DNA of 64,000 bases from Candidatus Omnitrophota bacterium (GCA_043805735.1 JAZDHS010000022.1:38950-102949); one strand, 5' to 3'; positions 1 to 58,236 are shown, numbered from the stretch's first letter. Notes: generated from the letters alone by a model not told the origin. Translations and numbers: made by a program.

Positions 1-626
1 CGCGCAGCTGTTCGAGCTTTTCCGCCTGTTCCAATTCCCCAATGGGTAAATTTTTAAACGTAAAGAGGAAATCTTTCGTATAGGCATAAAGCCCGATGTG
101 CTTATAAAAATTAAACTCCGGCGCGCAAGCATCGGCATCCCTAACATAGGGAATGGTTGAGCGCGAAAAATAAAGCGCAAAGTTACGTTTGTCTTTAACC
201 ACTTTTACGACGCTGGGATTGTTTAATTCGCTGTTATCGCTGATTTTACGGATTACCGTGGCCATCGGGATAGTTTCGTCATCACTAAGGCAACGCACCA
301 ATTCGTCAATCATCGAGAAATGGATTAGCGGCTCATCAGCCTGGATATTCAAAACAATAGCGGCATCGATCGGATTGGCTACCTCGGCAATCCGATCGGT
401 TCCGGAAGTGTGTTCTTTGGCCGTAATCACGACCTTGCCGCCGAAAGACTCTACTGCCCGCACCACCCGTTCATCATCGGTAGCTACAATGAGCTCATCG
501 AGCAGCCTGCTCTTTAAGGCCTCTTCGTAGACATATTGAATCAACGGTTTTCCCAATAGCTCTGCCAAAACCTTCCCCGGAAAACGGCTGGCCTCGTAAC
601 GCGCGGGGATAACACCAATGGCTTTC
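1..626 (-). CDS. kdsB: 3-deoxy-manno-octulosonate cytidylyltransferase (CMP-Kdo synthetase), C-terminally truncated by the window edge. Start GTG lies in the right end of repeat copy A.
   Basis: Own reverse-strand translation begins VKAIGVIPARYEASRFPGKVLAELLGKPLIQYVYEEA...FYKHIGLYAY, typical of KdsB. Not in the ORF track because it is partial. Confidence 0.85.
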
Positions 627-717
627 ACCCCGCCCTTCCTTTCCCGGCATTGCCAATATAAATACTGCTTCTGCTTAATTTCATCTGTATTGCTTTCTCA
701 GGAAGGGCGGGGTTCAT
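624..717 (-). mobile_element. Intergenic TIR repeat (MITE-like), copy A, short variant (~91 bp). In gene orientation it reads TGAA-CCCCGCCCTTCC...GGAAGGGCGGGG-TGAA; it sits between the hldA stop and the kdsB start.
   Basis: Direct sequence comparison with three other copies; shared 12-13 bp inverted termini, shared internal ATGCAGATGAAATTAAGC...TTTATATTGGCAATGCC core, TGAA flanks. Coordinates +/-3. Confidence 0.8.
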
Positions 718-1915: not shown

Positions 1916-2950
1916 TTAGTGCTGGAGAATCTTACCGGCCGCGGCCAGCGCTTCCTCAGGCGTAATCGCCTTAATGCAGGCAAAACCCTGGCGGCAAAGA
2001 TGGGCCAGGCAAGCCTGACAAGCGCTATCTTTATGCAGCACTACGTCCGCCTCACCCACTGGTCCCCAGCGGCGCGGACTTAACCCTGGCTGGCGACGGC
2101 CAAAAATAGCGATTACCGGCACCGCCAATGCCGAGGCAATGTGTACCGGGCCACTGTCGTTGGAGATAAAGAGCGCGCAGCGGCGCAAAAGACTGGCCAG
2201 TTGGCTCACGGAAGTCTTACCGCAGGCATCAATCGCGGGGCGCTCTAATTGATGAATCAGCTCTTGAGCGATGGCGACATGCTCCGGAGCGCTCACGACG
2301 ACAATCTTAGCCGCATATTGGCGCTGGAGCGCGTTAGCCACACGGGCAAAATGCTCCACCGGCCAAATCTTAGACCGACAACTAGCCGCCGGATGAATAG
2401 CGATTAAGCGTTGCCCTTTTTGCCATCCCTGGGAAGCTAAAAAGTCATCAACGTATTGTTCACTCTCCTTGCGTATCGGCATATACAAAGACTGGTCGAC
2501 CAGCGAAACGCCCAAGCGCTTAAGCATATCCAGCGTATAATCACGTTCGTGTTTAAGGCCGAGCTGTTTTTCATGCTTAATTTTATCGCTAAGCAAGAAA
2601 CTCATTTTTCGGTCATAGCCAATCCTGGTTTTGATCCCGGCTAAAAAGGCAATGATATGCACCCGATTGGTCGGATGCAGCATCAAAGCCAGGTTAAATC
2701 TTTTCCGGCGCAAGGAAAGCGCAAACAGCAGCGTCCGGAAAAAACTACGCTGCGCCGCATCTTTATCATAGACTATTACTTCATTAATATAAGGATTGCC
2801 CAAGACCACATCCTGGGCATACGGCCGGACCATCACGGCAATGTAACTCTCGGGAAAATTCAAGCGCAGGGTTTTCAACACCGGCGTCGAAAGCACAACA
2901 TCGCCGATGCGGTCGGTCCGGGTGACTAAAATCCGTTTAATTTGTCCCAT
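1916..2950 (-). CDS. GT9-family LPS heptosyltransferase (WaaC/WaaF-like)
   Basis: 344 aa, N-terminal ILVTRTDRIGDVVLSTP, C-terminal IASALAVPVIAIFG motifs of glycosyltransferase family 9. Confidence 0.8.
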   Translation of the reverse strand: MGQIKRILVTRTDRIGDVVLSTPVLKTLRLNFPESYIAVMVRPYAQDVVLGNPYINEVIVYDKDAAQRSFFRTLLFALSLRRKRFNLALMLHPTNRVHIIAFLAGIKTRIGYDRKMSFLLSDKIKHEKQLGLKHERDYTLDMLKRLGVSLVDQSLYMPIRKESEQYVDDFLASQGWQKGQRLIAIHPAASCRSKIWPVEHFARVANALQRQYAAKIVVVSAPEHVAIAQELIHQLERPAIDACGKTSVSQLASLLRRCALFISNDSGPVHIASALAVPVIAIFGRRQPGLSPRRWGPVGEADVVLHKDSACQACLAHLCRQGFACIKAITPEEALAAAGKILQH

Positions 2951-3920
2951 TTAAAACTTCCTTACACGCCGTAAACACCTCATCGGCACTAATTGCGATC
3001 AGGCACTCTCTGGTGTTTTTTGGGCAAAGAGACTCCCCGCATGGTGAGCAGGCCAGCTCTTTACGCATTACTATATTGCGCGCCCCTTGCGGGGCATACT
3101 TGCAATAATCGGTCGGGCCAAAAATAGCAATTACCGGAGTATTCACTGCCCAGGCAATATGCATCGGGGCAGAATCATTGGAAATCACTAACGAACATTT
3201 GGATAAGAGGCAAGCCAGCTGGGTAATCGTAATCTCGCCACAGGTATTTACCGCGTCGGCTACCGCGGCGCTGATCTGCTGCGCTAAAGAATAGTCATCG
3301 GTATCGCCAACCATCACAATTTTTGCTTTATATTCTTGGGCTAAGCGGCGCACCAATTCGGTATATCCGCTTTTCTCCCATGATTTGGTTTTATTGCGCG
3401 CCCCCGGGGCAATCGCGACTACCCGTTGACCGGAGCCAATCTGCCAGCTTTGCCACAGCCGCTCAACTGCCTTCTCATCATCGGCGTTCCACTCAAGCGA
3501 CGGCCCTTGTACCGCCTGAGTTTCGATACCCAGCACGTTAAGTTTCCAAAGATGCCGGGTGAGCATATGTTTAAGCGCCGGCGGTGCCTTGACGCCCAGG
3601 GGCGTATGCTGGGCAATGCCAAGAAAAAAACCAAAGGCCGAATTGCGTAAGTCAATCAGCAAATCGTAGCGCTTACGCCGCAGATCAACCAGTAAAGATA
3701 ATTTCTTGCGTAGCGGCGCCCGTTTATCATAGACAATCACCTCATTTACCCGGCGGTCATGCGTAAAGACATCACGGGCGCGCGGGCCAACCAGCACCGC
3801 CAACTCAGCCACGGGGAAAACCCGGCGCAGGGCCGCAATCACGGGTGTAGTCAGCACGGCATCCCCGATATTACTTAAGGTAATTACTAAAATCTTTTTA
3901 ACCCGCTCTTTTCTAATCAT
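2937..3920 (-). CDS. GT9-family LPS heptosyltransferase, paralog 2
   Basis: 327 aa, ILVITLSNIGDAVLTTP ... SNDSAPMHIAWAVNTPVIAIFGPT. Confidence 0.8.
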   Translation of the reverse strand: MIRKERVKKILVITLSNIGDAVLTTPVIAALRRVFPVAELAVLVGPRARDVFTHDRRVNEVIVYDKRAPLRKKLSLLVDLRRKRYDLLIDLRNSAFGFFLGIAQHTPLGVKAPPALKHMLTRHLWKLNVLGIETQAVQGPSLEWNADDEKAVERLWQSWQIGSGQRVVAIAPGARNKTKSWEKSGYTELVRRLAQEYKAKIVMVGDTDDYSLAQQISAAVADAVNTCGEITITQLACLLSKCSLVISNDSAPMHIAWAVNTPVIAIFGPTDYCKYAPQGARNIVMRKELACSPCGESLCPKNTRECLIAISADEVFTACKEVLNGTN

Positions 3921-4939
3921 TTTTTGCTCAGCAGTTTTTCCGCGGCCGAGAGCACGTCTTCAACGGTAATCGCCTGCATACAAAAATTTTGCCGGCATTT
4001 AAGTTCGTAACAGGGTATTTGGCAGTCGGTATTCTTATTAATGACAAAGTAGTTTCCGCCGCCATAGGGGCCGGTAATCAGCGGATCGGTCGGCCCAAAC
4101 AGGGCAATGACCTTGGCCTTTTGGCTGAGCGCGATATGCATCGGCCCGGAATCGTTGGCCACCACCAAATCGGCTTTGGCTAATAAGGCGGCCAGCTCAC
4201 CCAGCGTTGTCTTGGCGCAGAATATCACCGGGCGTTGCCTCATCTGCCCGGCAATTGCTTGGGCTAATGCCAAATCATTTTCGGCTCCGGTTATCAACAC
4301 CTTGGCCTGATATTTTTCACTCAATTCGTCACCCAACCGGCTAAAATTTTCTTTTGGCCAGCGTTTTAAACCCCAATTGCCTCCCGGATTAAGCACGATC
4401 AAACGATCAGCTGCTTTCAGGTCGTGCTCGCTTAAAAGCTGGTCAATAAATTTTTTGTCATCATCATCAAGAAAGAACTCATACTCCTTGTGCGCCGTTT
4501 CGATACCCAAGGCCCGGGCAAGATTTAAAAAATACTCTACTTTATGTAAACGTTCCATGGGTGCAGTAATGCGCCGGGTCAGCAGCCACCCTCTTTTTTT
4601 GGAATTATAACCGATACGCTCAGGAATACCGGCAAGAAAGCATAATAACGCGCGCGTAAGCGAGCGGTGTAGAAAAAACACCGCGGTAAAACGCCGCCGG
4701 CGCAACTGGCCGATCAATTTCAGTTTTCCCCAAAACCCTTTGTGCGGTCCTTCCTCATCGAAGACAATCACCTCATTAAGCCGGGGGTTATGTTCTAAGA
4801 TCTCCACACAGCGCGGGACGACCAGCGCGGCAATAAAACTCTGCGGATATTTGTCGCGCAACGCCCGGATCAAGGGCGTAGAAAACAGTACATCACCCCG
4901 CCAATTCTGGGTCACAATCAATATTCTTTCCATTAGCAC
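3917..4939 (-). CDS. GT9-family LPS heptosyltransferase, paralog 3
   Basis: 340 aa, ILIVTQNWRGDVLFSTP ... ANDSGPMHIALSQKAKVIALFGPT. Confidence 0.8.
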   Translation of the reverse strand: MLMERILIVTQNWRGDVLFSTPLIRALRDKYPQSFIAALVVPRCVEILEHNPRLNEVIVFDEEGPHKGFWGKLKLIGQLRRRRFTAVFFLHRSLTRALLCFLAGIPERIGYNSKKRGWLLTRRITAPMERLHKVEYFLNLARALGIETAHKEYEFFLDDDDKKFIDQLLSEHDLKAADRLIVLNPGGNWGLKRWPKENFSRLGDELSEKYQAKVLITGAENDLALAQAIAGQMRQRPVIFCAKTTLGELAALLAKADLVVANDSGPMHIALSQKAKVIALFGPTDPLITGPYGGGNYFVINKNTDCQIPCYELKCRQNFCMQAITVEDVLSAAEKLLSKK

Positions 4940-6048
4940 TGAGGCCCTTTCCCTATTTCCTGATAAACCCGCTCAATCCCGTCAACCATCTGGGCTAAGG
5001 TAAATTTTTCCCGTGCCTGTTGGGCCGCGGCCCGCCCCAATGTTGCGGCCAAGGCATTATCATGCAGAAGGCGCAGTATCGCCTGAGCCAAGGCCAAGGG
5101 GTCCCGAGGTTTGACTAACAAGCCGTTTTCTCCATCCTTGATTAACGAACCGATACCACCGACTTTGCTGGCAACAACGGCCAGTCCCATCGCCTGGGCT
5201 TCAATAATTGCTAGACCTAAGCCCTCCATCAGCGAAGGCAAAACAAACACATCGATACAAGCAAGGGCCTTACTGGTGTCCGGCGTTGCCGGGCTAAAGA
5301 TCACATTTTGTCCTATGCCCAGCTCTTTTACCAGCTCCTGCAATGGCTTCCTCTCCGGGCCATCGCCCACCAGCAACAGCTGCGCCCGGGGAAATTCCGC
5401 GAGGATCCGCGGCAAGGCCAAGAGCAAATAGCGCTGCCCTTTCACCGAGGACAATCGCCCAATGCTTCCGATAACCGGCGCATCAGGCCTTAAACCCAAT
5501 TCGCTTTTAGATGTATCTTTCTGCTGACGGTTATATCTTTGCGCAGAAAATTTTTCAATTTCTACGCCGTTATGAACTATGACCACGCGGTCTTTAGGAA
5601 TTCTAAAATCATTGATCAGATGCTCCTCAACCGCTTGGCTAATCGCAATCGAGCGTTCACCCCAACAAGGCCACAGCTTTCGCCATAAACGCGGTTTAAA
5701 AAAACCGTGGCAAGTGGCAACATAAGCAACAGTGAGTTTTCGCGAAAGAACCTGCGCCAATACCTGCGTGACTCGGGTGTGCGCATGCAGTACCTCAATC
5801 TTGTTTTGGCGAATAATCGCGCCCAGCTGAACAAATGCCGCCAGAAGCTTGGGATGCAGCTCAGATTTTGTTTGCAGGTCAACGGTAATATGCGTTACGC
5901 CGCCGGCGGCCAGCGTAGAAACTAAATCTCCTCCCGAAGAAACCACGATCACCCGATGCCCTTTGCGTACCAGCCCTTTTGCTAAAGACGAGACATAGAC
6001 TGCAATACCGCCAAGATTCAAGTGAGTTGTCAATAACAGAATACGCAT
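4933..6048 (-). CDS. GT4-family (RfaG-like) glycosyltransferase
   Basis: 371 aa, GT-B fold with C-terminal EGLGLAIIEAQAMGLAVVASKVGG motif. Confidence 0.75.
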   Translation of the reverse strand: MRILLLTTHLNLGGIAVYVSSLAKGLVRKGHRVIVVSSGGDLVSTLAAGGVTHITVDLQTKSELHPKLLAAFVQLGAIIRQNKIEVLHAHTRVTQVLAQVLSRKLTVAYVATCHGFFKPRLWRKLWPCWGERSIAISQAVEEHLINDFRIPKDRVVIVHNGVEIEKFSAQRYNRQQKDTSKSELGLRPDAPVIGSIGRLSSVKGQRYLLLALPRILAEFPRAQLLLVGDGPERKPLQELVKELGIGQNVIFSPATPDTSKALACIDVFVLPSLMEGLGLAIIEAQAMGLAVVASKVGGIGSLIKDGENGLLVKPRDPLALAQAILRLLHDNALAATLGRAAAQQAREKFTLAQMVDGIERVYQEIGKGPQC

Positions 6049-6049
6049 T

Positions 6050-6078
6050 GGTGTACGGTTTACGGTTTACGGTTTACG
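6050..6078. repeat. Heptanucleotide tandem repeat (ACGGTTT)x4 on + strand, (AACCGTA)x4 on the coding strand. It covers the last 5 codons and the stop of the GT4-GT9 fusion gene and the spacer before the GT4 gene's ATG.
   Basis: Seen directly in the sequence. Confidence 0.9.
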
Positions 6079-8180
6079 GTTGATCGAGCTTTTTGTTCCA
6101 ACAGGTGCATCACGGCTCGATAAACTTCTTCCGGTGTAATCTCCTGCATGCATTGGTTGGTCTTACAGCGTCTTTTGTAACAAGGAGCGCAAGGCAACTC
6201 TTTATGAATAATAACCTGTTTGGCCTGCACTAAGGCATGACGTTCGGGGCTAGTCGGGCCAAATAAGGCTACCACCGGGATTTTCATCGCATAGGCGATA
6301 TGCAGCGGCGCGCTATCGCCGGTAATATAGACGCTGCAGTGTTTCACCAGGCTGATTAATTGCCTAACGGAGGTCTCTCCGGTGGCCTGGATTATCGGCT
6401 GGGCCACAAGTGCTTCTAAGCGTTTAGCCAATTTTTCATCGCTGCCCTGGCCGGTAATCAAGATCTCCACTGGCCCAGATCGTAACTTTTTTATCAGTAG
6501 CGCATAATTTTCCAGCGCCCATCTTTTTGTCGGCCATTTAACGCTTGAGCCCAAATTGATGCCGATCAGCGGGCGGTCGCGGTTAATTTTTGCCTTTTCC
6601 AGAAAGTAATCGGCCCAGGCCTGGTCCTCTTTATCCGGCCAAAGCGCCAAATCCTCTTCGACCTTGGTGATCCCCAAAAGCGCCAAGGTCCGCGCCTGGT
6701 GCGCAACCGGAGCAAGCGCAGACTTAAGCGGCCGGACTTTTTCATTTAAAAGAAAACTAAACTTGCCGTTGTGATATCCGTATCTTTTCGGCGCCCCGCT
6801 TAAATAGGCTAAGAGATGGCTGCGCCGGTTATTCTGCAGGTCGAAAGCAAAATCAAAATACTTTTGCCGCAGGCGTTGGGAGAACCTGAGCAAATCCCGA
6901 AAAGCAGTTTTCTGCGGAGAAAACTCCAGCACCTCATTGATATACGGGCAGCCTCTGAGTACCTGGGCATAAGCCTTGTTGACCGCAACGGCAATATGCC
7001 CTTGCGGAAATTTTTCGCGCAGTGCACGCAAAGAAGGAATAGCCAGGATAACGTCTCCCAGCGCACTTAATTTGATTACCAGAATTCTCGGGCAGGCGAG
7101 AACCTCCTCATAGACGGCAATCGTCTTGTCGGCCATCAGTTTAAGCGAGAATTTCTGTTCCACGTTTTTACGGGCGGTGAAGGCAAAACGCTGCCTTAAT
7201 TCGGGGGCCTTATAGAGCGCGATAATCGCCTTGGCCAATTCTTCGCTGTTTCCGGGTGGGACCAGTTTTCCGTTTACGCCGTCCTCGACAATGTCGACTA
7301 TTCCGCCAACCTGCGTAGCGATAACCGGCACACCACAGGCCCCGGCCTCAATCAGCACCCGGCCAAAGGCCTCCTGTGTTAGCGTCGGCAGGACTAAGAG
7401 ATCAAGGCCAGATAATACGGCGGGTATATTATCCAGCTGACCGCTAAATTTTACATAAGGAGATAAACCCAGTCTTCTGGTGAGCATTTTGAGCTCTTCC
7501 TTATATTGCTCTTTTCCCGGTGAGGCCTCACCGACAATCAGGACCTTTACTTTGGGAATAACCCGGATCACCCGGGCAATGGCCTGCAAAAAATGAGTAT
7601 GGCCTTTAATGGGCGTGAGCCTGCTGATTAAACCGATTGTAAATTCGTCGCGGTCTTTACCAGGCGTTATTGCCTTCGGGCGGAAAATAAATTGCTCTAA
7701 GTCCACTCCCCGGGGAATAAAACGTAGCCGTTCTGGGGGTACGCCAAATTGTTCCTGCATATGCCGGGCAATGACGTTGCTCGAAACTATCACCAGTTTC
7801 CCCCAGCCCATTACGCGGCTGAAAAAACTGTTACTGTAATGGCCGTGACAGGTAGTCACAAAATGCACTCCGGCCTGACGGCTTGCCCAAAAAGCAATCA
7901 AGGCCGGAACTCTCGAGCGGGCGTGCACCAGATCAATCTTTTCCTCAACCAAAATTTTTGCCACTTTCGGGATAGCGCGCAGAATTGAAAACAGTGATTT
8001 CTGGTGTACCGCAAGACAATAATGCCGCGCCCCAGCTTTTTCCAGTTCCGCTACCAGCTTTCCGCCGTTGGAAATTACGATCGCTCTGTGCTTACGCAGC
8101 ACTAACTCCCGCGCTAAATCCACGCACCCGCGTTCAACGCCACCGATATTCAGCTCCGGGACAATCTGTAAAATATTCAT
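6060..8180 (-). CDS. Fusion protein: N-terminal GT4 glycosyltransferase plus C-terminal GT9 heptosyltransferase
   Basis: 706 aa. Residues 1-~360 carry GT4 motifs (EAFGRVLIEAGACGVPVIATQVGG). Residues ~360-706 carry GT9 motifs (ILVIKLSALGDVILAIPS ... GDSAPLHIAYAMKIPVVALFGPT). Confidence 0.75.
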   Translation of the reverse strand: MNILQIVPELNIGGVERGCVDLARELVLRKHRAIVISNGGKLVAELEKAGARHYCLAVHQKSLFSILRAIPKVAKILVEEKIDLVHARSRVPALIAFWASRQAGVHFVTTCHGHYSNSFFSRVMGWGKLVIVSSNVIARHMQEQFGVPPERLRFIPRGVDLEQFIFRPKAITPGKDRDEFTIGLISRLTPIKGHTHFLQAIARVIRVIPKVKVLIVGEASPGKEQYKEELKMLTRRLGLSPYVKFSGQLDNIPAVLSGLDLLVLPTLTQEAFGRVLIEAGACGVPVIATQVGGIVDIVEDGVNGKLVPPGNSEELAKAIIALYKAPELRQRFAFTARKNVEQKFSLKLMADKTIAVYEEVLACPRILVIKLSALGDVILAIPSLRALREKFPQGHIAVAVNKAYAQVLRGCPYINEVLEFSPQKTAFRDLLRFSQRLRQKYFDFAFDLQNNRRSHLLAYLSGAPKRYGYHNGKFSFLLNEKVRPLKSALAPVAHQARTLALLGITKVEEDLALWPDKEDQAWADYFLEKAKINRDRPLIGINLGSSVKWPTKRWALENYALLIKKLRSGPVEILITGQGSDEKLAKRLEALVAQPIIQATGETSVRQLISLVKHCSVYITGDSAPLHIAYAMKIPVVALFGPTSPERHALVQAKQVIIHKELPCAPCYKRRCKTNQCMQEITPEEVYRAVMHLLEQKARSTVNRKP

Positions 8181-21717: not shown

Positions 21718-22191
21718 TTATCGGCTCATGGCGATGCGGCCGGTGCGCACGATTTCTTTAATTTCGAAGTTCTTCAGCAACTCCAAAAACGTATGAATCT
21801 TATTTTGATCGCCGACCACTTCCAGAGTTAGGGCATTAGTCGCGGCCTCATCGATCTTGGCCTCTAAAGTCTGGGCAATTTCCAGAAGCTGTGGACGGAT
21901 CTTTGGCGTCACCACCACTTTGACTAATACCAACTCTCGGTCAATAAAATTTTCGCCAGTCAAATCCTGGACCCTGATCGTATCGACTAATTTGTTCAGC
22001 TGTTTCTTAATCTGCTCGAGGATCTTTTCATCCGGGGCATTGACCACAATAGTCATCTGGGAAACTGTGGGATCATTAGTCGGGCTAACCGATAAAGAAT
22101 CAATATTAAAGCCGCGCGCGGCAAACAAACCGGCCACCCGCGCCAAAACCCCAAATTTATTTTCCACTAAGACCGAGAATATATGTTTCAC
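21718..22191 (-). CDS. ilvN: Acetolactate synthase small (regulatory) subunit. GTG start created at the repeat copy B junction.
   Basis: 157 aa, ACT domain LVENKFGVLARVAGLF. Confidence 0.85.
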   Translation of the reverse strand: MKHIFSVLVENKFGVLARVAGLFAARGFNIDSLSVSPTNDPTVSQMTIVVNAPDEKILEQIKKQLNKLVDTIRVQDLTGENFIDRELVLVKVVVTPKIRPQLLEIAQTLEAKIDEAATNALTLEVVGDQNKIHTFLELLKNFEIKEIVRTGRIAMSR

Positions 22192-22318
22192 CCCGCTCTT
22201 CCTTTCCAGGCATTGCCAATATAAATATTGCCTTTGCTTAATTTCATCTGCATTGCCTAAACCTTTCTGGCTATGCTTATGTTTGTTACGATCGCTTGTT
22301 TAGGAAGGGCGGGGTTCA
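22187..22318 (-). mobile_element. Intergenic TIR repeat, copy B (~131 bp), between the ilvB stop (TGA then TGAACCCC) and the ilvN GTG start
   Basis: Same termini and core as copies A, C and D. Confidence 0.8.
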
Positions 22319-23992
22319 TCAGGCCAGCCCTCCTCCGATCATCCGGTTAATCGCTTCGCCGGCCGGTACCATCGGAAAGACGTTTTCTTCTTTTTCGACC
22401 ACGAAATCGAGAATCACCGGCTTATCCTTGATCGCCAGGGCCTTTTTGAGCGCGGCGCGCACATCCTTTTTCTTATCGATGCGCAATCCCAGCGCGCCAT
22501 AAGCTTCGGCCAGCTTCACGAAGTCCGGGTTAACGAGATTGGTATAGGAATATCTTTTCTTATAGAACAGTTCCTGCCATTGGCGAACCATACCGAGATA
22601 GCTATTGTTCAGGATAGCAATCTTAATCGGCAATTTATTATTCACCGCGGTGGCCAGTTCCTGAATATTCATCTGAATACTGCCGTCTCCGGCAATATCA
22701 AAGACGATCGCCTTGGGTTTTCCCAGTTGTGCGCCGATCGCCGCGGGAAAACCGTATCCCATCGTACCTAGGCCACCGCTGGAAATAAAACTGCGCGGTT
22801 CGATATATTGATAATACTGCGCCGCCCACATCTGATTTTGGCCTACTTCGGTCGTAATAATCGCTTTCCCTTTGGTAAGCTCAGAAATTTGTTCGACGAC
22901 ATACTGCGGACGCAACTTATTGTCGTCTTTATACTTTAAGGGATGCTTTTGTTTCCATTGTTTGACTTTCTCATCCCAGGCCGCAATCTGCGGTTTTTGG
23001 ACGATTTTATTCAACTGGGTCAAAATATTTTTAGCGTCGCCGACTATCGGAATATCCACTTCCACGTTTTTGCTGATTGCCGAAGGGTCGATATCAATAT
23101 GAATAATCTTAGCGTGCGGGGCAAAGGCATCAAGCCGGCCGGTAACACGGTCATCAAAGCGGGCACCCACGGCAATAATTAAATCCGCCTCCATAATCGC
23201 GTGGTTGGCGTAAGCGGTGCCGTGCATGCCAAGCATCCCTAAAGAAAGCTTATGCGTTCCGGGAAAACAACCCAGTCCTAAAAGCGTAGTGGTGACCGGA
23301 ATTGCCGTTTTTTCCGCTAGCTTTCTCAATTCCTCGGAGGCCTCGGAAAGAATCACCCCGCCGCCGGCATAGATAATCGGCCTTTTGCTTTCGGAAATTA
23401 TCTTTGCCGCACGTTTAATCTGTCCGGGATGGCCGGTAATTGTCGGCTTATATCCGCGTAAATCCGGATCCTTCGGATAATGGAATTCACATTCGGCACT
23501 GGCGACATCAGACGGTAAATCAATTAGCACCGGGCCCGGCCGTCCGGTCCGCGCGATAAAAAAGGCGTTTTTGATCGTCTGGGCCAACTCGCGCACATCC
23601 TTGACCAAGTAATTGTGTTTGGTGATCGAACGGGTAACCCCGGTCACATCGGCCTCTTGAAAGGCATCATTTCCGATCAGGTGCGTTTTCACCTGGCCGG
23701 TAATTGCCACTACGGGAATGGAATCCATATAGGCCGTAGCCAAACCGGTGACTAAATTGGTCGCCCCTGGCCCGGAAGTAGCCAGACAGACGCCGACCTT
23801 ACCGGTAGCCCGGGCATAGCCGTCGGCCGCGTGCGCCGCGCCCTGTTCATGCCGGGTCAAAATCAATTTAATCTCGGCATCATAAAGTACATCAAAAATA
23901 GCCAGCACCTGCCCTCCGGGATAGCCAAAAATTATCTTCACCCCTTCGTGCTGCAGGCTTTCGATGAGAATCTTTGCGCCGCTGAGTTTCAC
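22319..23992 (-). CDS. ilvB: Acetolactate synthase large subunit. GTG start inside the right end of repeat copy C.
   Basis: 557 aa, TPP enzyme motifs. Confidence 0.9.
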
Positions 23993-24119
23993 CCCGCCCT
24001 TCCTTTCACGGTATTACCAATATAAACATTACTTTTGCTTAATTTTATCTGCATTGCTTAAACCTTTTTATTCCCGCCTTTGCTTATATGCGTTGCTTGT
24101 TTAGGAAGGGCGGGGTTCA
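23988..24119 (-). mobile_element. Intergenic TIR repeat, copy C (~129 bp). Its first TGA is the ilvD stop; its terminal GGGG+TG forms the ilvB GTG start.
   Basis: Same termini and core. Confidence 0.8.
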
Positions 24120-25769
24120 TTTCAGAATTGCTCCTTCATTGGCCTGCGAGACTAACCGGGCATAACGATATAAGTACCCTTCGCTCACTTTCGGCTGCGG
24201 GGCTTTCCAGCTCGCCAAGCGCTCATTAATCTCCCTCTGGCTTAACTTCACTTCTAATTTGCGATTCGGCAGATCAATAGTAATGATATCGCCGTCCTTA
24301 ATGATCGCTAAAGGACCACCCACGGCCGCTTCCGGGGCAATGTGTCCGATACAAGGCCCGCGCGTACCGCCGGAGAATCTACCGTCGGTAATCAGGGCCA
24401 CGCTTTCGGCCAGGCCCATTCCCACTACGGCCGCCGTTGGTGAAAGCATTTCGCGCATCCCCGGGCCGCCTTTGGGCCCTTCATAGCGGATGACAATCAC
24501 TTCGCCGCGGCGGATTTTACCCTCTAAGATTACCCGCATCGCTTCTTCTTCGGTATTAAAACAGCGAGCGACGCCGCTAAAATGCTGCATTTTCTTGCCC
24601 ACGGCCGACTGTTTTACCACTGCCCCATCAGGAGCAAGATTGCCTTTTAAAATAGCAATACCGCCTTCGCTATGATAAGGATTGCTCAAACGTCGGATCA
24701 CCTCTTCGTTATACACCGGGGCGCTGGCGGCAATTTGCTGCACAGTTTTACCGCTAACGGTAGGCAGATTATGCAATTTATCTTTTAGCCGTTTAAAAAT
24801 GGCCGGTATTCCGCCGGCGGCATCAAAGTCTTCCATAAAATATTCGCCCCCAGGGAGTAAATCGACGATATGCGGCACCTGCCGGCTGATTTTATCAAAG
24901 GTCTCTAAGGTTAAACTCAGGCCAAATTCCCGGGCGATGGCCATAAGGTGCAGCACCGAGTTGGAGGAACCGCCCAGAGCCATATCGACTATAATCGCAT
25001 TTTCCAGGGTCTGTTTTTTCACTATGGTCCGCGGCAAGACGTTACGGCGCACTAACTGCACAATTTGTTCGCCGCTTAAAGAGGCAATTCTATCCTTACG
25101 GGCCGAAACGGCCAAAGCGCTGGCGCACCCCGGCAGAGAAAGCCCGATCGCTTCAGTTAGACAGCTCATCGTATTGGCGGTATAAAGCCCCTGGCAAGAA
25201 CCGGCTCCGGGGCAGGCCTCAATTTCCAAATTATTCAACTCATCCTGGGAGATTTCCCCTTTTTTAAATCTGGCCAGGGCCTCAAAGCTATCCTTCACTA
25301 AAGACAAGCGCCGCTGTTTATATCTTCCTGAAATCATCGGACCGGCCGTAACCACGATCGCGGGGATATTGAGCCGGCCGATAGCCATCAGCATGCCGGG
25401 TGTAATTTTATCACAGTTAGTCAGGCAGACCAACCCGTCAAAACAGTGCGCGCGGACCATCGTTTCCACGCAGTCGGCGATTAATTCCCGGGAGGCCAGC
25501 GAATATTTCATCCCCTGATGGCCCATAGCAATACCGTCGCAGATTCCGGGCACGCCGAAGAAAAACGGCACTCCGCCTCCTGAGCAAACCCCCCGTTCAA
25601 TAAAGCGCTCCAGGCGGCGCATCCCAATGTGCCCAGGTATAATATCGCTAAAGCTGCTAGCCACACCGATAAAAGGCTTGCGCATTTCGGCACGGGTAAT
25701 CCCGGTAGCATAGAGTAAAGCCCGATTACCGGTGCGTTCCAGACCTTTCTTGATTCGATCGCTTCTCAT
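24117..25769 (-). CDS. ilvD: Dihydroxy-acid dehydratase. Its TGA stop is the first three bases of repeat copy C.
   Basis: 550 aa, CDKITPG Fe-S cluster motif. Confidence 0.9.
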
Positions 25770-40763: not shown

Positions 40764-41649
<886 letters not shown>

Positions 41650-41652
<3 letters not shown>

Positions 41653-42720
41653 CCTTCGCTCCTTGAGCTGTTTTTTAAGATAGTCTATTCTTTCCACTGG
41701 CAGCGGATCTTCTTCATTCAACAGGGCTAAATAGTAACTGACAAAATCGCCTTTATAAATAAGCGAAAACATCCGGGCCAAAAGCCCATCGCCGCGCGAC
41801 CAGATTTCCTTAAGCGTAATCGATTCTTTCTGCAGAAGTTCGCGAGTAATGTCGATGCGTTTTTTCACCTGTGGGTGTTCGCCGGGATCGCGTAAAAAAA
41901 CCACCACAAAGCGTTCGAGTGCCGAGCGCGGATGGCGCCAGCCGACAATCTCATTATGCGTCATTTCCGGAAAAACATGCGTCGAAGAAAGCATTTTACT
42001 GTTTTCGGCCAGCTGCTGCCTCCAGCGCGTGGCCACCGCAGAAAAATGTTCATCCGCCGCGTAAATCACACAATAGTGGTCTTTGAGCCGATGAGCCAGG
42101 GTCTTGGCGGGATTCCTTTCGCTGGGTACGGCCACGCCGAAGGCTTCTTTTTCCAGCTTTTTTAAAAGCTTCACCGTCTCCCGCACTTCCTGTTCCTTAT
42201 TTTTTATCAGGCCGATGTTAGCAAAAATGGCCAGCAGCGGAAGCGATAGAAAAGCTAAGGCCGAACGCGGCGGATACCCTTGCGGCAAGAGCACACAGAG
42301 ATCGCCATTTTTTTTTGCCGCTTCAGCCAGTTCGCCCCCGCAAGTCAGGGCAATAATCTTCGCCTTTTTGCTGCGTGCCTGCTGGTAGGCGCCCAGCACC
42401 TCTTCGGTATTTCCCGAATAGCTCATTAGAATCGCCAGCGTCTCTTTACCGACATATCCCGGCAGCGTATAATCGCGGTTAACCGCGAGCGGAATACGCA
42501 GATCTTTGCGCAAATACCCGCTCATTATTTCCGCGCCGATCGCCGAACCGCCCATGCCGCAGCACACGCTATTGCGCACCTTGGCCAAAGCACGGCCCGG
42601 TGAAACATGTTTACCTAAAGCAAAGGCCTGGGTGCACTGTTGCGAAAAGGCGCCGATAATCTCGCGCATCTTCAAGCGGTCAATCCGCTCAATATATCGG
42701 GGATCATCCAGAGAACGCAC
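41650..42720 (-). CDS. Bifunctional phosphoglucose/phosphomannose isomerase (SIS domain). Its TGA stop is supplied by repeat copy D.
   Basis: 356 aa, SIS domain motifs (SYSGNTEE). Confidence 0.7.
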
Positions 42721-46515: not shown

Positions 46516-46591
46516 TGGAGCGGGCGATGGGGTTCGAACCCACGACAACAACGTTGGCAACGTTGTGCTCTACCAACTGAGCTACGCCCGC
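46516..46591 (-). tRNA. tRNA-Gly (anticodon GCC), CCA encoded
   Basis: Manual fold: acceptor GCGGGCG/CGCCCGC, D-arm GCTC-AGTTGGTA-GAGC, anticodon loop TTGCCAA, T-loop TTCGAAC. Confidence 0.85.
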
Positions 46592-46615
46592 TGGTTTAGT
46601 TTATGCTTTAGAATA

Positions 46616-46700
46616 TGGTGCGGACGAAGGGAGTTGAACCCCCACGGGTTTCCCCACAAGATCCTAAGTCTTGCGCGTCTGCCAATTCCGCCACGTCCGC
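46616..46700 (-). tRNA. tRNA-Leu (anticodon TAG), long variable arm, CCA encoded
   Basis: Manual fold: acceptor GCGGACG/CGTCCGC, anticodon stem CAAGA/TCTTG with loop CTTAGGA, 85 nt. Confidence 0.75.
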
Positions 46701-46717
46701 CCGCCTTCTTCTTACCG

Positions 46718-46793
46718 TGGTACCCCCACAAGGATTCGAACCTTGGACCTTGTCCTTAAGAGGGACCTGCTCTGCCAACTGAGCTATGGGGGC
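46718..46793 (-). tRNA. tRNA-Lys (anticodon CTT), CCA encoded
   Basis: Manual fold: acceptor GCCCCCA, D-arm GCTC-AGTTGGCA-GAGC, anticodon loop CTCTTAA, T-arm CAAGG-TTCGAAT-CCTTG. Confidence 0.8.
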
Positions 46794-46824
46794 TCCTGCT
46801 ATATGCTAATAAGGTGGATAATTA

Positions 46825-46853
46825 TAACATAAAGAGAAAAGCTGGTCAATTAA
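46825..46853 (-). promoter_or_regulatory. Sigma70-type promoter (TTGACC-17-TATAAT) ~25 nt upstream of tRNA-Lys; probable promoter of the Lys-Leu-Gly tRNA operon
   Basis: TTGACCAGCTTTTCTCTTTATGTTATAAT on the minus strand. Confidence 0.6.
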
Positions 46854-46929
46854 AATGGTGTTCAGCGAATCCTAACCGGCCAAAAATTTCCTCACCACAA
46901 GACGGTTCGGAAATTTCTTGGCCAGGATT

Positions 46930-46980
46930 CGATGTAAAATTAAAAAGCACCACTACATATGATAAAAGAGCTTTTTAATT
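46930..46980 (-). terminator. Hairpin TTAAAAAGC-N21-GCTTTTTAA followed by a T-rich tract, immediately 3' of tRNA-Arg
   Basis: 9-bp inverted repeat. Confidence 0.45.
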
Positions 46981-46983
46981 TTA

Positions 46984-47060
46984 TGGCGCGCTCGGCAGGA
47001 CTCGAACCTGCGACCAACTGGTTCGAAGCCAGCTACTCTATCCAACTGAGCTACGAGCGC
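46984..47060 (-). tRNA. tRNA-Arg (anticodon TCG), CCA encoded
   Basis: Manual fold: acceptor GCGCTCG/CGAGCGC, anticodon stem-loop GCTGG-CTTCGAA-CCAGT, T-arm GCAGG-TTCGAGT-CCTGC. Confidence 0.8.
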
Positions 47061-57403: not shown

Positions 57404-58236
57404 TCCTTTAATGTCTCCGGCAAAGCGTGCACCGGTATTTTTTCCTTATAAAGCCCTTTGGGCTCTTCTTCACGGCTATAGTCTTCCAAAAGCCCCAACG
57501 CCTCTTTCTCGCTTAATTCATTGTTTGCCGACTGGCTTTGCTCAGCAGAACTTTTTTGTTCTTGCTGCTGGTTTTGCTCTTGCTCTTGCCGTTGCTGCTC
57601 TTGCCGTTGCTGCTCTTGCTGTTGCTGCTCTTCCTGGGCCTGCTGTTGTTCGCTCTGCTGCTGTTGTTCATTTTGCTGCCCACTCAGCCCGTTTTGCTGC
57701 TGTTGTTGCTGTTGCTGCTGCTGTTGTTGCTGTTTTTGCTGCTGCTTTTGCTCTTCTTTTTTAAGTAGCCGCTCGAGCTCTTTTTTTACGAATTCGTAAT
57801 TATACTTAGCGTCTTCGTCTTGGCCATTGAGCTCAATTGCCCGTTCATAATGCCGTAACGATTGTTTCAACAACCCAATCGCCCGCTCGAGATCCGTTTG
57901 CTCAAACCCAATACCGTATTTGTATTTGGCATTGCCAATATTATAGCTGGCGTTTTGCTCTAAAACCGGGATATCAGAAAGGAGGGATTTTTCGTATTGG
58001 CCAATCGCCGGTTCGTAATCTTGCATTTTATAGCTGGTGTTACCCAGGTTAAAATTTACAATATCAGAATCGGGCTGGCGCTTTTGCGCCTGCTCATACT
58101 CTTTTTGCGCTTCCTGAAAATGCCCTTCTTCGTACAAGACATTACCCTTTTTCACCTGACTTTTTAGCGAAGGCGCCGCCCAGGCGCTAGGCGCACAAAG
58201 GACAATGAACACTGCGACGATTAGAAAATATCTCAT
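57397..58236 (-). CDS. batC: Aerotolerance protein BatC-like TPR protein with Gln/Glu-rich low-complexity C-terminal region
   Basis: 279 aa, signal peptide, TPR, poly-Q tract. Confidence 0.6.
   Translation of the reverse strand: MRYFLIVAVFIVLCAPSAWAAPSLKSQVKKGNVLYEEGHFQEAQKEYEQAQKRQPDSDIVNFNLGNTSYKMQDYEPAIGQYEKSLLSDIPVLEQNASYNIGNAKYKYGIGFEQTDLERAIGLLKQSLRHYERAIELNGQDEDAKYNYEFVKKELERLLKKEEQKQQQKQQQQQQQQQQQQQNGLSGQQNEQQQQSEQQQAQEEQQQQEQQRQEQQRQEQEQNQQQEQKSSAEQSQSANNELSEKEALGLLEDYSREEEPKGLYKEKIPVHALPETLKDW
57520..57780 (-). repeat. CAG/CAA trinucleotide-rich tract encoding the poly-Gln/Glu region of BatC
   Basis: (CTG/TTG)n on + strand with internal sub-repeats (TTGCTGCTCTTGCCG x3). Confidence 0.85.

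Follow-up and report, generated by a model that had tools for sequence, protein, structure and literature searches.

We analyzed a 64,000-nucleotide stretch of DNA from a Candidatus Omnitrophota bacterium (GCA_043805735.1 JAZDHS010000022.1:38950-102949; hereafter, the window), which carries four copies (A to D) of a short repeat bounded by terminal inverted repeats (TIRs) and located at gene junctions. The explanation that we favor, and consider probable, is that the repeats belong to a family of tiny GIY-YIG elements that target start codons, give rise to MITE-like derivatives (MITE, miniature inverted-repeat transposable element), are translated from host signals, and rebuild a stop/start overlap in front of the host gene. 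With no more than a modest lean in its favor, we further propose that this family represents a new class of transposons, about 290 bp long and bounded by TIRs, which would encode an Slx1-like GIY-YIG nuclease as the sole gene, insert at start codons, hand the ribosomes back to the host gene, and keep their MITEs translatable; such elements would form a superfamily, and part of the ‘UPF0213’ proteins would have a mobile role. An earlier note on this DNA described in each repeat a conserved upstream open reading frame (uORF) of about 21 codons and took it to be a built-in relay for translational coupling; the observation was confirmed, and the interpretation is partly supported.

All long open reading frames (ORFs) of the window are on the minus strand, as are the four repeats, and in gene orientation each copy has the layout (R)TGAA, CCCCGCCCTTCC ... 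GGAAGRGCGGGG, TGAA (R, purine). The four window copies share near-perfect TIRs of 12–13 nt, CCCCGCCCTTCC(T) / (A)GGAAGRGCGGGG, with more than 80 public copies. The downstream GTG codons of copies A to D open the genes for KdsB, IlvN, IlvB, and a sugar-phosphate nucleotidyltransferase, respectively, with Pfam domains aligning from residues 1–5. The individual features listed in the earlier note were recovered: an ATG-initiated frame runs open to the terminal TGA in all four copies (the four quoted translations are correct), and this TGA overlaps the GTG start of the host gene (GTGA) in each of them; a Shine-Dalgarno sequence (SD), GGAAGG or GGAAGA, is located in the right TIR 5 nt before the GTG; an AGG lies 8 nt upstream of the internal ATG in copies B, C, and D; and the left and right TIRs can pair. 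For each of the four copies, RNA folding (dG -38 to -45 kcal/mol, z -3.3 to -4.9) yields a TIR stem of 13–14 bp in both the minimum free energy structure and the centroid structure, and this GC-rich stem covers the SD together with the first base of the GTG.

The earlier note overlooked that the uORF frame runs on leftwards, through the left TIR (AAC CCC GCC CTT CC.), into an RTG just outside. This RTG is the original host start codon (ATG or GTG), kept in the left TGAA copy of the target site, and it overlaps the TGA of the upstream gene in copies A, C, and D. In copy A, the frame is open throughout, with 31 codons from the native ATG (717..) to the TGA (..625), and encodes MNPALPEKAIQMKLSRSSIYIGNAGKGRAG followed by the stop. 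Copies B and C contain a 20-codon first ORF, then a stop and one more codon before the uORF ATG, and copy D has two stops between the native GTG and the internal ATG; the first ORFs of B to D span 13–20 codons and end 1–5 codons before the internal ATG. The internal ATG, previously regarded as the point of entry, appears to be a lineage-specific restart after a stop, the natural entry being the captured host start codon.

The putative autonomous form of the element was found via the protein database. It occurs mainly among Candidatus Omnitrophota and is about 290 bp long, with 12-bp TIRs (CCCCGCCCTTCC / GGAAGGGCGGGG), a TGAA 4-bp target-site duplication (TSD), and a single end-to-end ORF for a 96-aa stand-alone Slx1-like (UPF0213-type) GIY-YIG nuclease that begins with MNPALP and ends with KKGRAG at the stop codon; the left TIR encodes (M)NPALP, and the right TIR encodes (K)GRAG and the stop. 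Several element peptides, MNPALPKNWYYVYLLKS..WIYIGCTNDLEKKGRAG followed by the stop, align with the beginning of the Pfam GIY-YIG domain (E=4e-4), and the protein database contains some 100 intact proteins, close to 96 aa in length, with the MNPALP start and the (K)KGRAG end, annotated ‘GIY-YIG nuclease family protein [Candidatus Omnitrophota]’. Full-length copies reside inside operons (MTHFR/CooC-like ATPase, argD/argF, between nuo genes, between two trkA genes), and their ends equal those of the window repeats (ATGAA, CCCCGCCCTTCC...GGAAGGGCGGGG, TGAA); the parent ORF begins with an ATG on or beside the stop of the upstream gene and ends with a TGA that overlaps the host GTG. Scanning the loci with element copies for long TIR pairs (200–2500 nt) produced chance pairs only.

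The assignment of the parent protein is supported by several lines of evidence. It scores 52.5 bits against PF01541 (cut-off, 22.6); the catalytic residues Y13, Y24, R34, H38, and E58 are invariant among 28 sequences; profile searches of the PDB matched 1zg2 (E=4e-8), 1ywl, and SLX1; and the AlphaFold2 (AF2) model (pLDDT 84) has UPF0213 (1zg2) and Slx1 as the top Foldseek matches. The dN/dS ratio of about 0.10 between loci L087 and L088 indicates strong purifying selection on the protein, which we infer to be the mobility enzyme. A profile search of 1.84 billion representatives yielded 1,709 relatives at E<=1e-10, most of which lack TIR-encoded termini; some bear analogous termini derived from other TIR sequences. 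One such element (L096:1501-1842), located between two GalT-like genes, has the TIRs TCCCGCACCTTC / GAAGGTGCGGGA and the TSD TGAA; its right end remakes an ATG, giving an ATGA overlap, and a 51-nt MITE is found in tandem with it. Another (L095:165-485), with the TIRs CCCCRCCCCTC / GGAGGGGCGGGG, is accompanied by a tandem 27-nt copy consisting of TIRs only, and the host ATG directly follows a TAA (TAAATG). These TIR variants suggest a wider superfamily. Two more observations concern the parent type. In one full-length element, the ORF is broken by some 100 nt of unrelated inserted sequence with short GC-rich palindromes (L085:1948-2040 and L086:898-990); the insert may represent another small mobile element that has nested within the GIY-YIG element. 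A distant GIY-YIG homolog (L033:851-1066; chromosome CP070837.1, minus strand), about 45% identical to the element protein over residues 15–87 and without recognized TIR-encoded termini, could represent either a UPF0213 gene with a housekeeping role or an element of another type.

The connection between the parent and the window repeats comes from a comparison of register, in which sequences anchored on the right TIR were compared without gaps over the last 54 nt before AAAGGAAGG. Identity is 70% (z ~7) between the parent and L065, 70% again between L065 and the 124-nt type of CP070837 (L011), and 52–56% (z 4.1–4.6) between the CP070837 124-nt type (L011/L004) and window copy B. The MITE peptides ending in ...SLAKLKSKLGIAKKGRAG and a stop correspond to the C-terminus of the parent GIY-YIG protein. 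Judging from these alignments, the window uORF (KLSKGNIYIGNAWKGRAG followed by the stop) is an in-frame, in-register remnant of LAKLKSRLGIxKKGRAG and its stop, and the window repeats are MITE-like, non-autonomous derivatives of the ~290-bp element produced by internal deletion. Only the last ~18 codons of the parent ORF are recognizably retained in the window copies; the complete catalytic domain is absent, and the window peptides have no match in Pfam. The uORF is free of indels and ends in the terminal TGA because it descends from the nuclease ORF with frame and register preserved; what had been read as a purpose-built device is a leftover of the parent gene's 3' end.

For a wider view of the family, copies were collected by pattern scans of genome contigs and metagenome contigs that required both TIRs with a gap of 85–115 nt; with the addition of neighboring copies in the same loci, this resulted in 76 unique copies of 44–132 nt. 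The elements found by pattern are almost confined to Candidatus Omnitrophota metagenome-assembled genomes, the complete chromosome CP070837.1 among them. The pattern also matched sequences of Streptomyces, Actinomadura, Terriglobia, Pyrinomonadaceae, and other taxa; these have different flanks (extended palindromes) and were left out as GC-rich inverted repeats unrelated to the family. The flanks are TGAA/TGAA in 71 copies, and the variants (six cases of TGAG, along with CTGA and TTGA) are identical on both sides; the agreement between the left and right variant flanks identifies a true TSD. At the 66 non-tandem sites, the TSD is preceded by A in 57 cases and by G in 9, never by C or T, and a purine-rich SD is found 8–12 nt upstream (-17..-13); the upstream stop overlaps as RTGA at 25 sites and is 2–8 nt away at most of the others. 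Tandem insertions (n=9) each occurred in a GTGAA made by an earlier element. GTGA is present at the right end of every copy, the SD-like AAAGGAAGG lies in the right TIR 5–8 nt before the GTG in every copy, and the GTG opens ORFs of 100–900 codons in nearly all of them. The internal orientation relative to the asymmetric TSD is identical in all ~76 copies.

Five pairs of filled and empty orthologous start sites were identified, and the empty sites consist of ATGAA(T/G) behind a normal SD. For example, the site filled in L014 is empty in L031 (...AAAGGAGCTATAATGAATATC), and the site filled in L027/L082 corresponds to an empty gene start at 8180 in the window. The KdsB and IlvN proteins of the window are 73% and 86% identical, respectively, to those of CP070837.1. 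The kdsB and ilvN starts are occupied by elements in both genomes (624-717 vs L005:2321-2445; 22187-22318 vs L011), with each element closer to copies in its own genome than to the copy at the orthologous site. Taken at face value, this pattern would imply concerted evolution, or else that elements at one site have repeatedly been replaced or inserted anew. In L022:5861-5970 and several other copies with length n mod 3 = 2, an open frame joins the captured ATG to the host gene; such copies would extend the host protein at its N-terminus by about 39 residues, much as Rickettsia palindromic elements do.

Maintenance of the frame was assessed across this collection. The captured RTG is in frame with the terminal TGA in 42 of the 76 unique copies, and 31 of the 42 are open end to end. 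Among the copies of at least 100 nt, 36 of 54 are in frame (naive p=6e-7), compared with 6 of 22 among those below 100 nt, which is about random. The count of stops relied on minimum-spanning trees that included all same-length in-frame copies regardless of stops, with edges of at least 50% identity, along which the substitutions were re-placed randomly. Five frame-0 stops were observed in the in-frame copies against 26.4 expected (Poisson P=4e-7), whereas frames 1 and 2 conformed to the expectation (80 vs 73.7 and 93 vs 89.7, respectively). Along the same tree edges, there is no synonymous excess (fraction 0.117 vs 0.146 expected), and the differences are distributed evenly over the codon positions (158/175/178). 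The avoidance of stops combined with the lack of amino-acid constraint is the pattern expected where translation matters rather than its product; translatability appears to be selected, with the peptide free to drift. Two alternative scoring schemes were discarded: majority-consensus scoring of the nonsense deficit, which at this divergence registers ‘stops’ not present in any real sequence, and edge-wise simulation on open copies only, which is biased by that choice.

Several observations weigh against our explanation. The captured start is out of frame in 34 of the 76 copies, and stops interrupt 11 of the in-frame copies, including window copies B to D. No ATG-initiated terminal uORF is present in 27 of the 45 broken copies, yet the host genes downstream are intact; the relay is not required, and the SD carried by the TIR together with the GTG may suffice. 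Such frameshifted and interrupted copies are those that the earlier note had named as counter-evidence to its interpretation. Counted by lineage, the in-frame excess is reduced to p=0.02, and the stop count assumes independent tree edges and uniform placement of mutations. In the window lineage, stops are not depleted (about 1.9 simulated vs 1–2 observed), and, given the observed substitutions, the neutral probability of the 21-codon frame staying open in the four window copies is about 0.08; the four window copies alone show no more than shared descent, and the signal is significant only with the wider copy set. Finally, a tblastn search of the 64 kb detected neither a full-length copy nor a GIY-YIG gene. 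Of the proposed coupling relay, the GTGA overlap, the SD, the stem, and insertion at operon junctions stand as invariants of the family, and translatability is favored in the longer in-frame copies; the necessity of the relay is not supported.

The mechanism that we propose starts with insertion at RTGAA, that is, the host start codon plus AA. The left copy of the duplication retains the host ATG and its SD, which now start the element frame; the right copy, together with the last G of the TIR, forms the new host GTG, overlapping the element TGA (GTGA) and preceded by the SD-like AAAGGAAGG in the TIR. In the operon mRNA, the TIR stem is predicted to hide this SD and the first base of the GTG, and would be melted both by ribosomes that terminate translation of the upstream gene at the left arm and by those that initiate at the captured RTG. 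Ribosomes translating the element frame would stop at GTGA and promote initiation at the host gene via termination-reinitiation, RNA unfolding, or both, the two models of coupling discussed, with the -4 spacing, in PMC12548453 and PMC6728339. We infer from these sequence features that translation of the element frame raises host-gene expression. The path would be uninterrupted in copy A, whereas copies B to D would need a restart at the internal ATG, 1–5 codons after the stop, a role that this codon could play. In broken-frame copies, the host gene probably relies on the opening of the stem by upstream ribosomes and on the SD borne by the TIR. The autonomous element would profit as well, its nuclease being expressed from host translation signals.

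Other explanations account for parts of the evidence. The frame might be a pure relic without a role, open only through its recent coding origin, with the host gene initiated de novo at the TIR SD and GTG, which we regard as possible but on balance improbable. Such initiation would be served by the AAAGGAAGG that the right TIR supplies ahead of every GTG; moreover, many short, out-of-frame, or stop-bearing copies precede intact genes, and the window lineage shows no stop depletion. This reading does not account for the frame-specific deficit of stops across the in-frame copies, for the fact that the most successful lengths (109, 124) are in frame, or for the single orientation relative to the asymmetric TSD, and the GC-rich stem of 13–14 bp, which buries the SD and the first GTG base, calls for an opening mechanism. 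We consider it rather unlikely that, as proposed in the earlier note, the uORF starting at the internal ATG with its own weak SD is a dedicated, conserved relay carried to restore coupling. Its openness in all four window copies, the AGG-N8-ATG arrangement in B to D, the universal GTGA overlap, and a terminal in-frame ATG in 18 of the 45 broken copies compared with 7.8 +/- 2.5 in shuffles are all compatible with such a relay. However, the internal ATGs are restricted to the window/CP070837 lineage, the majority of the broken copies dispense with any ATG uORF, AGG by itself is a poor SD, the excess over the shuffles is confounded by the relic open frame, the window copies alone give only the probability cited above, and the frame is inherited from the nuclease gene.

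That the repeats act mainly through RNA structure within the operon mRNA (as a hairpin for processing, stability, or attenuation), with an incidental reading frame, seems to us quite improbable, even though all copies form a strong TIR stem and there is precedent in Correia, ERIC, and other bacterial MITEs, which act at the RNA level. An Rfam scan of the whole window detected four tRNAs only, none at the elements, and a promoter and terminator scan at the elements remained at the chance level, with no terminator-like T-run and no enrichment of promoters; the frame-specific stop depletion would be left unexplained. The TIR variants are mostly found in a single arm (41 vs 4 shared), in a sample biased by the search pattern. 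Covariation of the TIRs was also considered as evidence of an RNA stem and rejected as uninformative: the search pattern already admitted Y/R where the TIRs mainly vary, and recognition by a protein predicts the same. A functional micro-peptide is hardly credible. The C-terminal KGRAG is conserved and motifs such as LAKLK/IYIG recur, but KGRAG is encoded by the TIR itself, the interior changes without synonymous excess and evenly over the codon positions, and the sequences diverge beyond recognition between subfamilies; the check for peptide-level selection called for in the earlier note thus revealed no amino-acid constraint.

The start-codon-targeting GIY-YIG element that we favor can be compared with several known systems. 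Mycobacterial interspersed repetitive units (MIRUs), described in PMC12548453 on the basis of Supply et al. 1997, are mobile repeats at start codons that contain an ORF coupled at the -4 spacing, an arrangement thought to make insertion neutral through coupling. They, too, are short operon repeats at start codons, in which the stop of the small ORF overlaps the host start and the ORF start overlaps the upstream stop. The functional idea of a start-codon repeat with a coupled ORF is already known from MIRUs; the difference is in the nature of the element. The Omnitrophota element differs in having TIRs, a TSD, MITE derivatives, a decayed nuclease ORF, and a host from another phylum, and its anatomy speaks for analogy with MIRUs rather than relatedness. 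To our knowledge, MIRUs are tandem-repeat units, similar to variable-number tandem repeats, with neither TIRs nor a TGAA duplication, and have no known autonomous protein-coding parent. The engineered short-ORF coupling design likewise delivers ribosomes or unfolds RNA via a stop/start overlap; in Omnitrophota, it is a natural mobile element that bears this arrangement.

Among bacterial MITEs, Chunjie (Geobacter), Correia/NEMIS, and ERIC are likewise small, TIR-bounded, TSD-flanked, and co-transcribed, with a long hairpin (PMC10969869). Known MITEs derive from insertion sequences of the DDE or HUH type and insert in intergenic DNA (PMC10969869), in contrast to the Omnitrophota family with its GIY-YIG parent, precise insertion at start codons, single orientation, and replacement of the start codon. 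The T4 seg genes and the I-TevI family (PMC2988022) are likewise selfish genes of the GIY-YIG type that have lodged between host genes and are often expressed in dependence on their neighbors. The identity of the parent as a homing endonuclease was nevertheless rejected, given a protein of 96 aa that consists of the catalytic domain only and copies at dozens of unrelated genes. Homing endonucleases are larger, contain a DNA-binding domain, target one cognate allele, and home through recombination; they are not known to possess TIRs or TSDs or to give rise to MITEs. The closest relatives of the parent ORF in sequence and fold are the UPF0213 proteins BH0048 (1zg2) and EF2693 (1ywl), which share the minimal domain and the catalytic residues; generic UPF0213 members lack the TIR-encoded NPALP and GRAG termini. 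Prokaryotic stand-alone Slx1-like proteins were treated as repair-type or housekeeping proteins in a phylogenomic survey of the GIY-YIG superfamily (PMC1564403). In a full-text literature search of open-access papers, no account of a TIR-bounded GIY-YIG element that occupies start codons was found, and the Omnitrophota element is apparently undescribed so far.

If the proposed explanation is correct, the element limits the harm to the host by targeting the start codon, the one place whose loss it can replace, which would explain the persistence of the repeats in essential operons (ilv, Kdo, arg, nuo, Wood-Ljungdahl) of small, gene-dense genomes. The family would then provide a natural multi-copy system for testing termination-reinitiation against RNA unfolding, suggest a possible selfish function for part of the large family of stand-alone Slx1-like GIY-YIG proteins, and add a type of nuclease not known to drive prokaryotic transposition with TIRs and TSDs. 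For genome annotation, the elements create GTG starts and ORFs of 20–40 codons that are easily mis-called.

Table 1. Coordinates of the four element copies in the window, with their reading frames and adjoining genes
Feature	Position	Strand	Description
Copy A	624-717	minus	85 nt TIR-to-TIR; 39-nt in-frame internal deletion; junction of PfkB-family kinase gene and kdsB
Copy A, junction codons			PfkB-family kinase stop TGA 716..714 overlaps ATG 717..715; kdsB GTG 628..626; terminal TGA 627..625
Copy A, uORF	684..625	minus	Internal ATG of the earlier note at 684..682
Copy B	22187-22318	minus	Both TGAA target-site copies included; junction of ilvB (stop TGA 22321..22319) and ilvN
Copy B, ends			Left TSD 22318..22315; left TIR CCCCGCCCTTCC 22314..22303; right TIR GGAAGAGCGGGG 22202..22191; right TSD 22190..22187
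Copy B, uORF	22188..22253	minus	MQMKLSKGNIYIGNAWKGRAG and stop; TGA 22190..22188 overlaps ilvN GTG 22191..22189
Copy B, first ORF	22257..22319	minus	Captured native ilvN ATG 22319..22317 to TAG 22259..22257; in the uORF frame
ilvN (acetolactate synthase small subunit)	21718..22191	minus	Present GTG start composed of the right TIR's last G and the TSD
Copy C	23988-24119	minus	ilvD stop 24119..24117 overlapping ATG 24120..24118; ilvB GTG 23992..23990
Copy C, ORFs		minus	First ORF 24120..24058; uORF 24054..23989
Copy D	41521-41652	minus	Junction of PGI/SIS-domain gene and sugar-phosphate nucleotidyltransferase gene
Copy D, junction codons and uORF			Upstream stop 41652..41650 overlaps native GTG 41653..41651; downstream GTG 41525..41523; uORF 41587..41522

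Several other features of the window were recorded. An exact-protein look-up for the window IlvD found none on record. Four tandem AACCGTA heptamers (6052-6081, minus strand) are located at the 3' end of the gene 6060..8180, the stop codon of which falls within the repeat, just upstream of a start codon at 6048. Three consecutive paralogous genes of about 330–344 codons (1916-4939, minus strand) share a 75-nt repeat family with 60–71% identity. A cluster of four tRNA genes (Rfam RF00005, 55–70 bits) occupies 46519-47060 on the minus strand, and a long imperfect CTG/TTG-rich triplet repeat at 57557-57774, with 13 overlapping 44-nt matches, would encode a Gln-rich low-complexity sequence on the gene strand.

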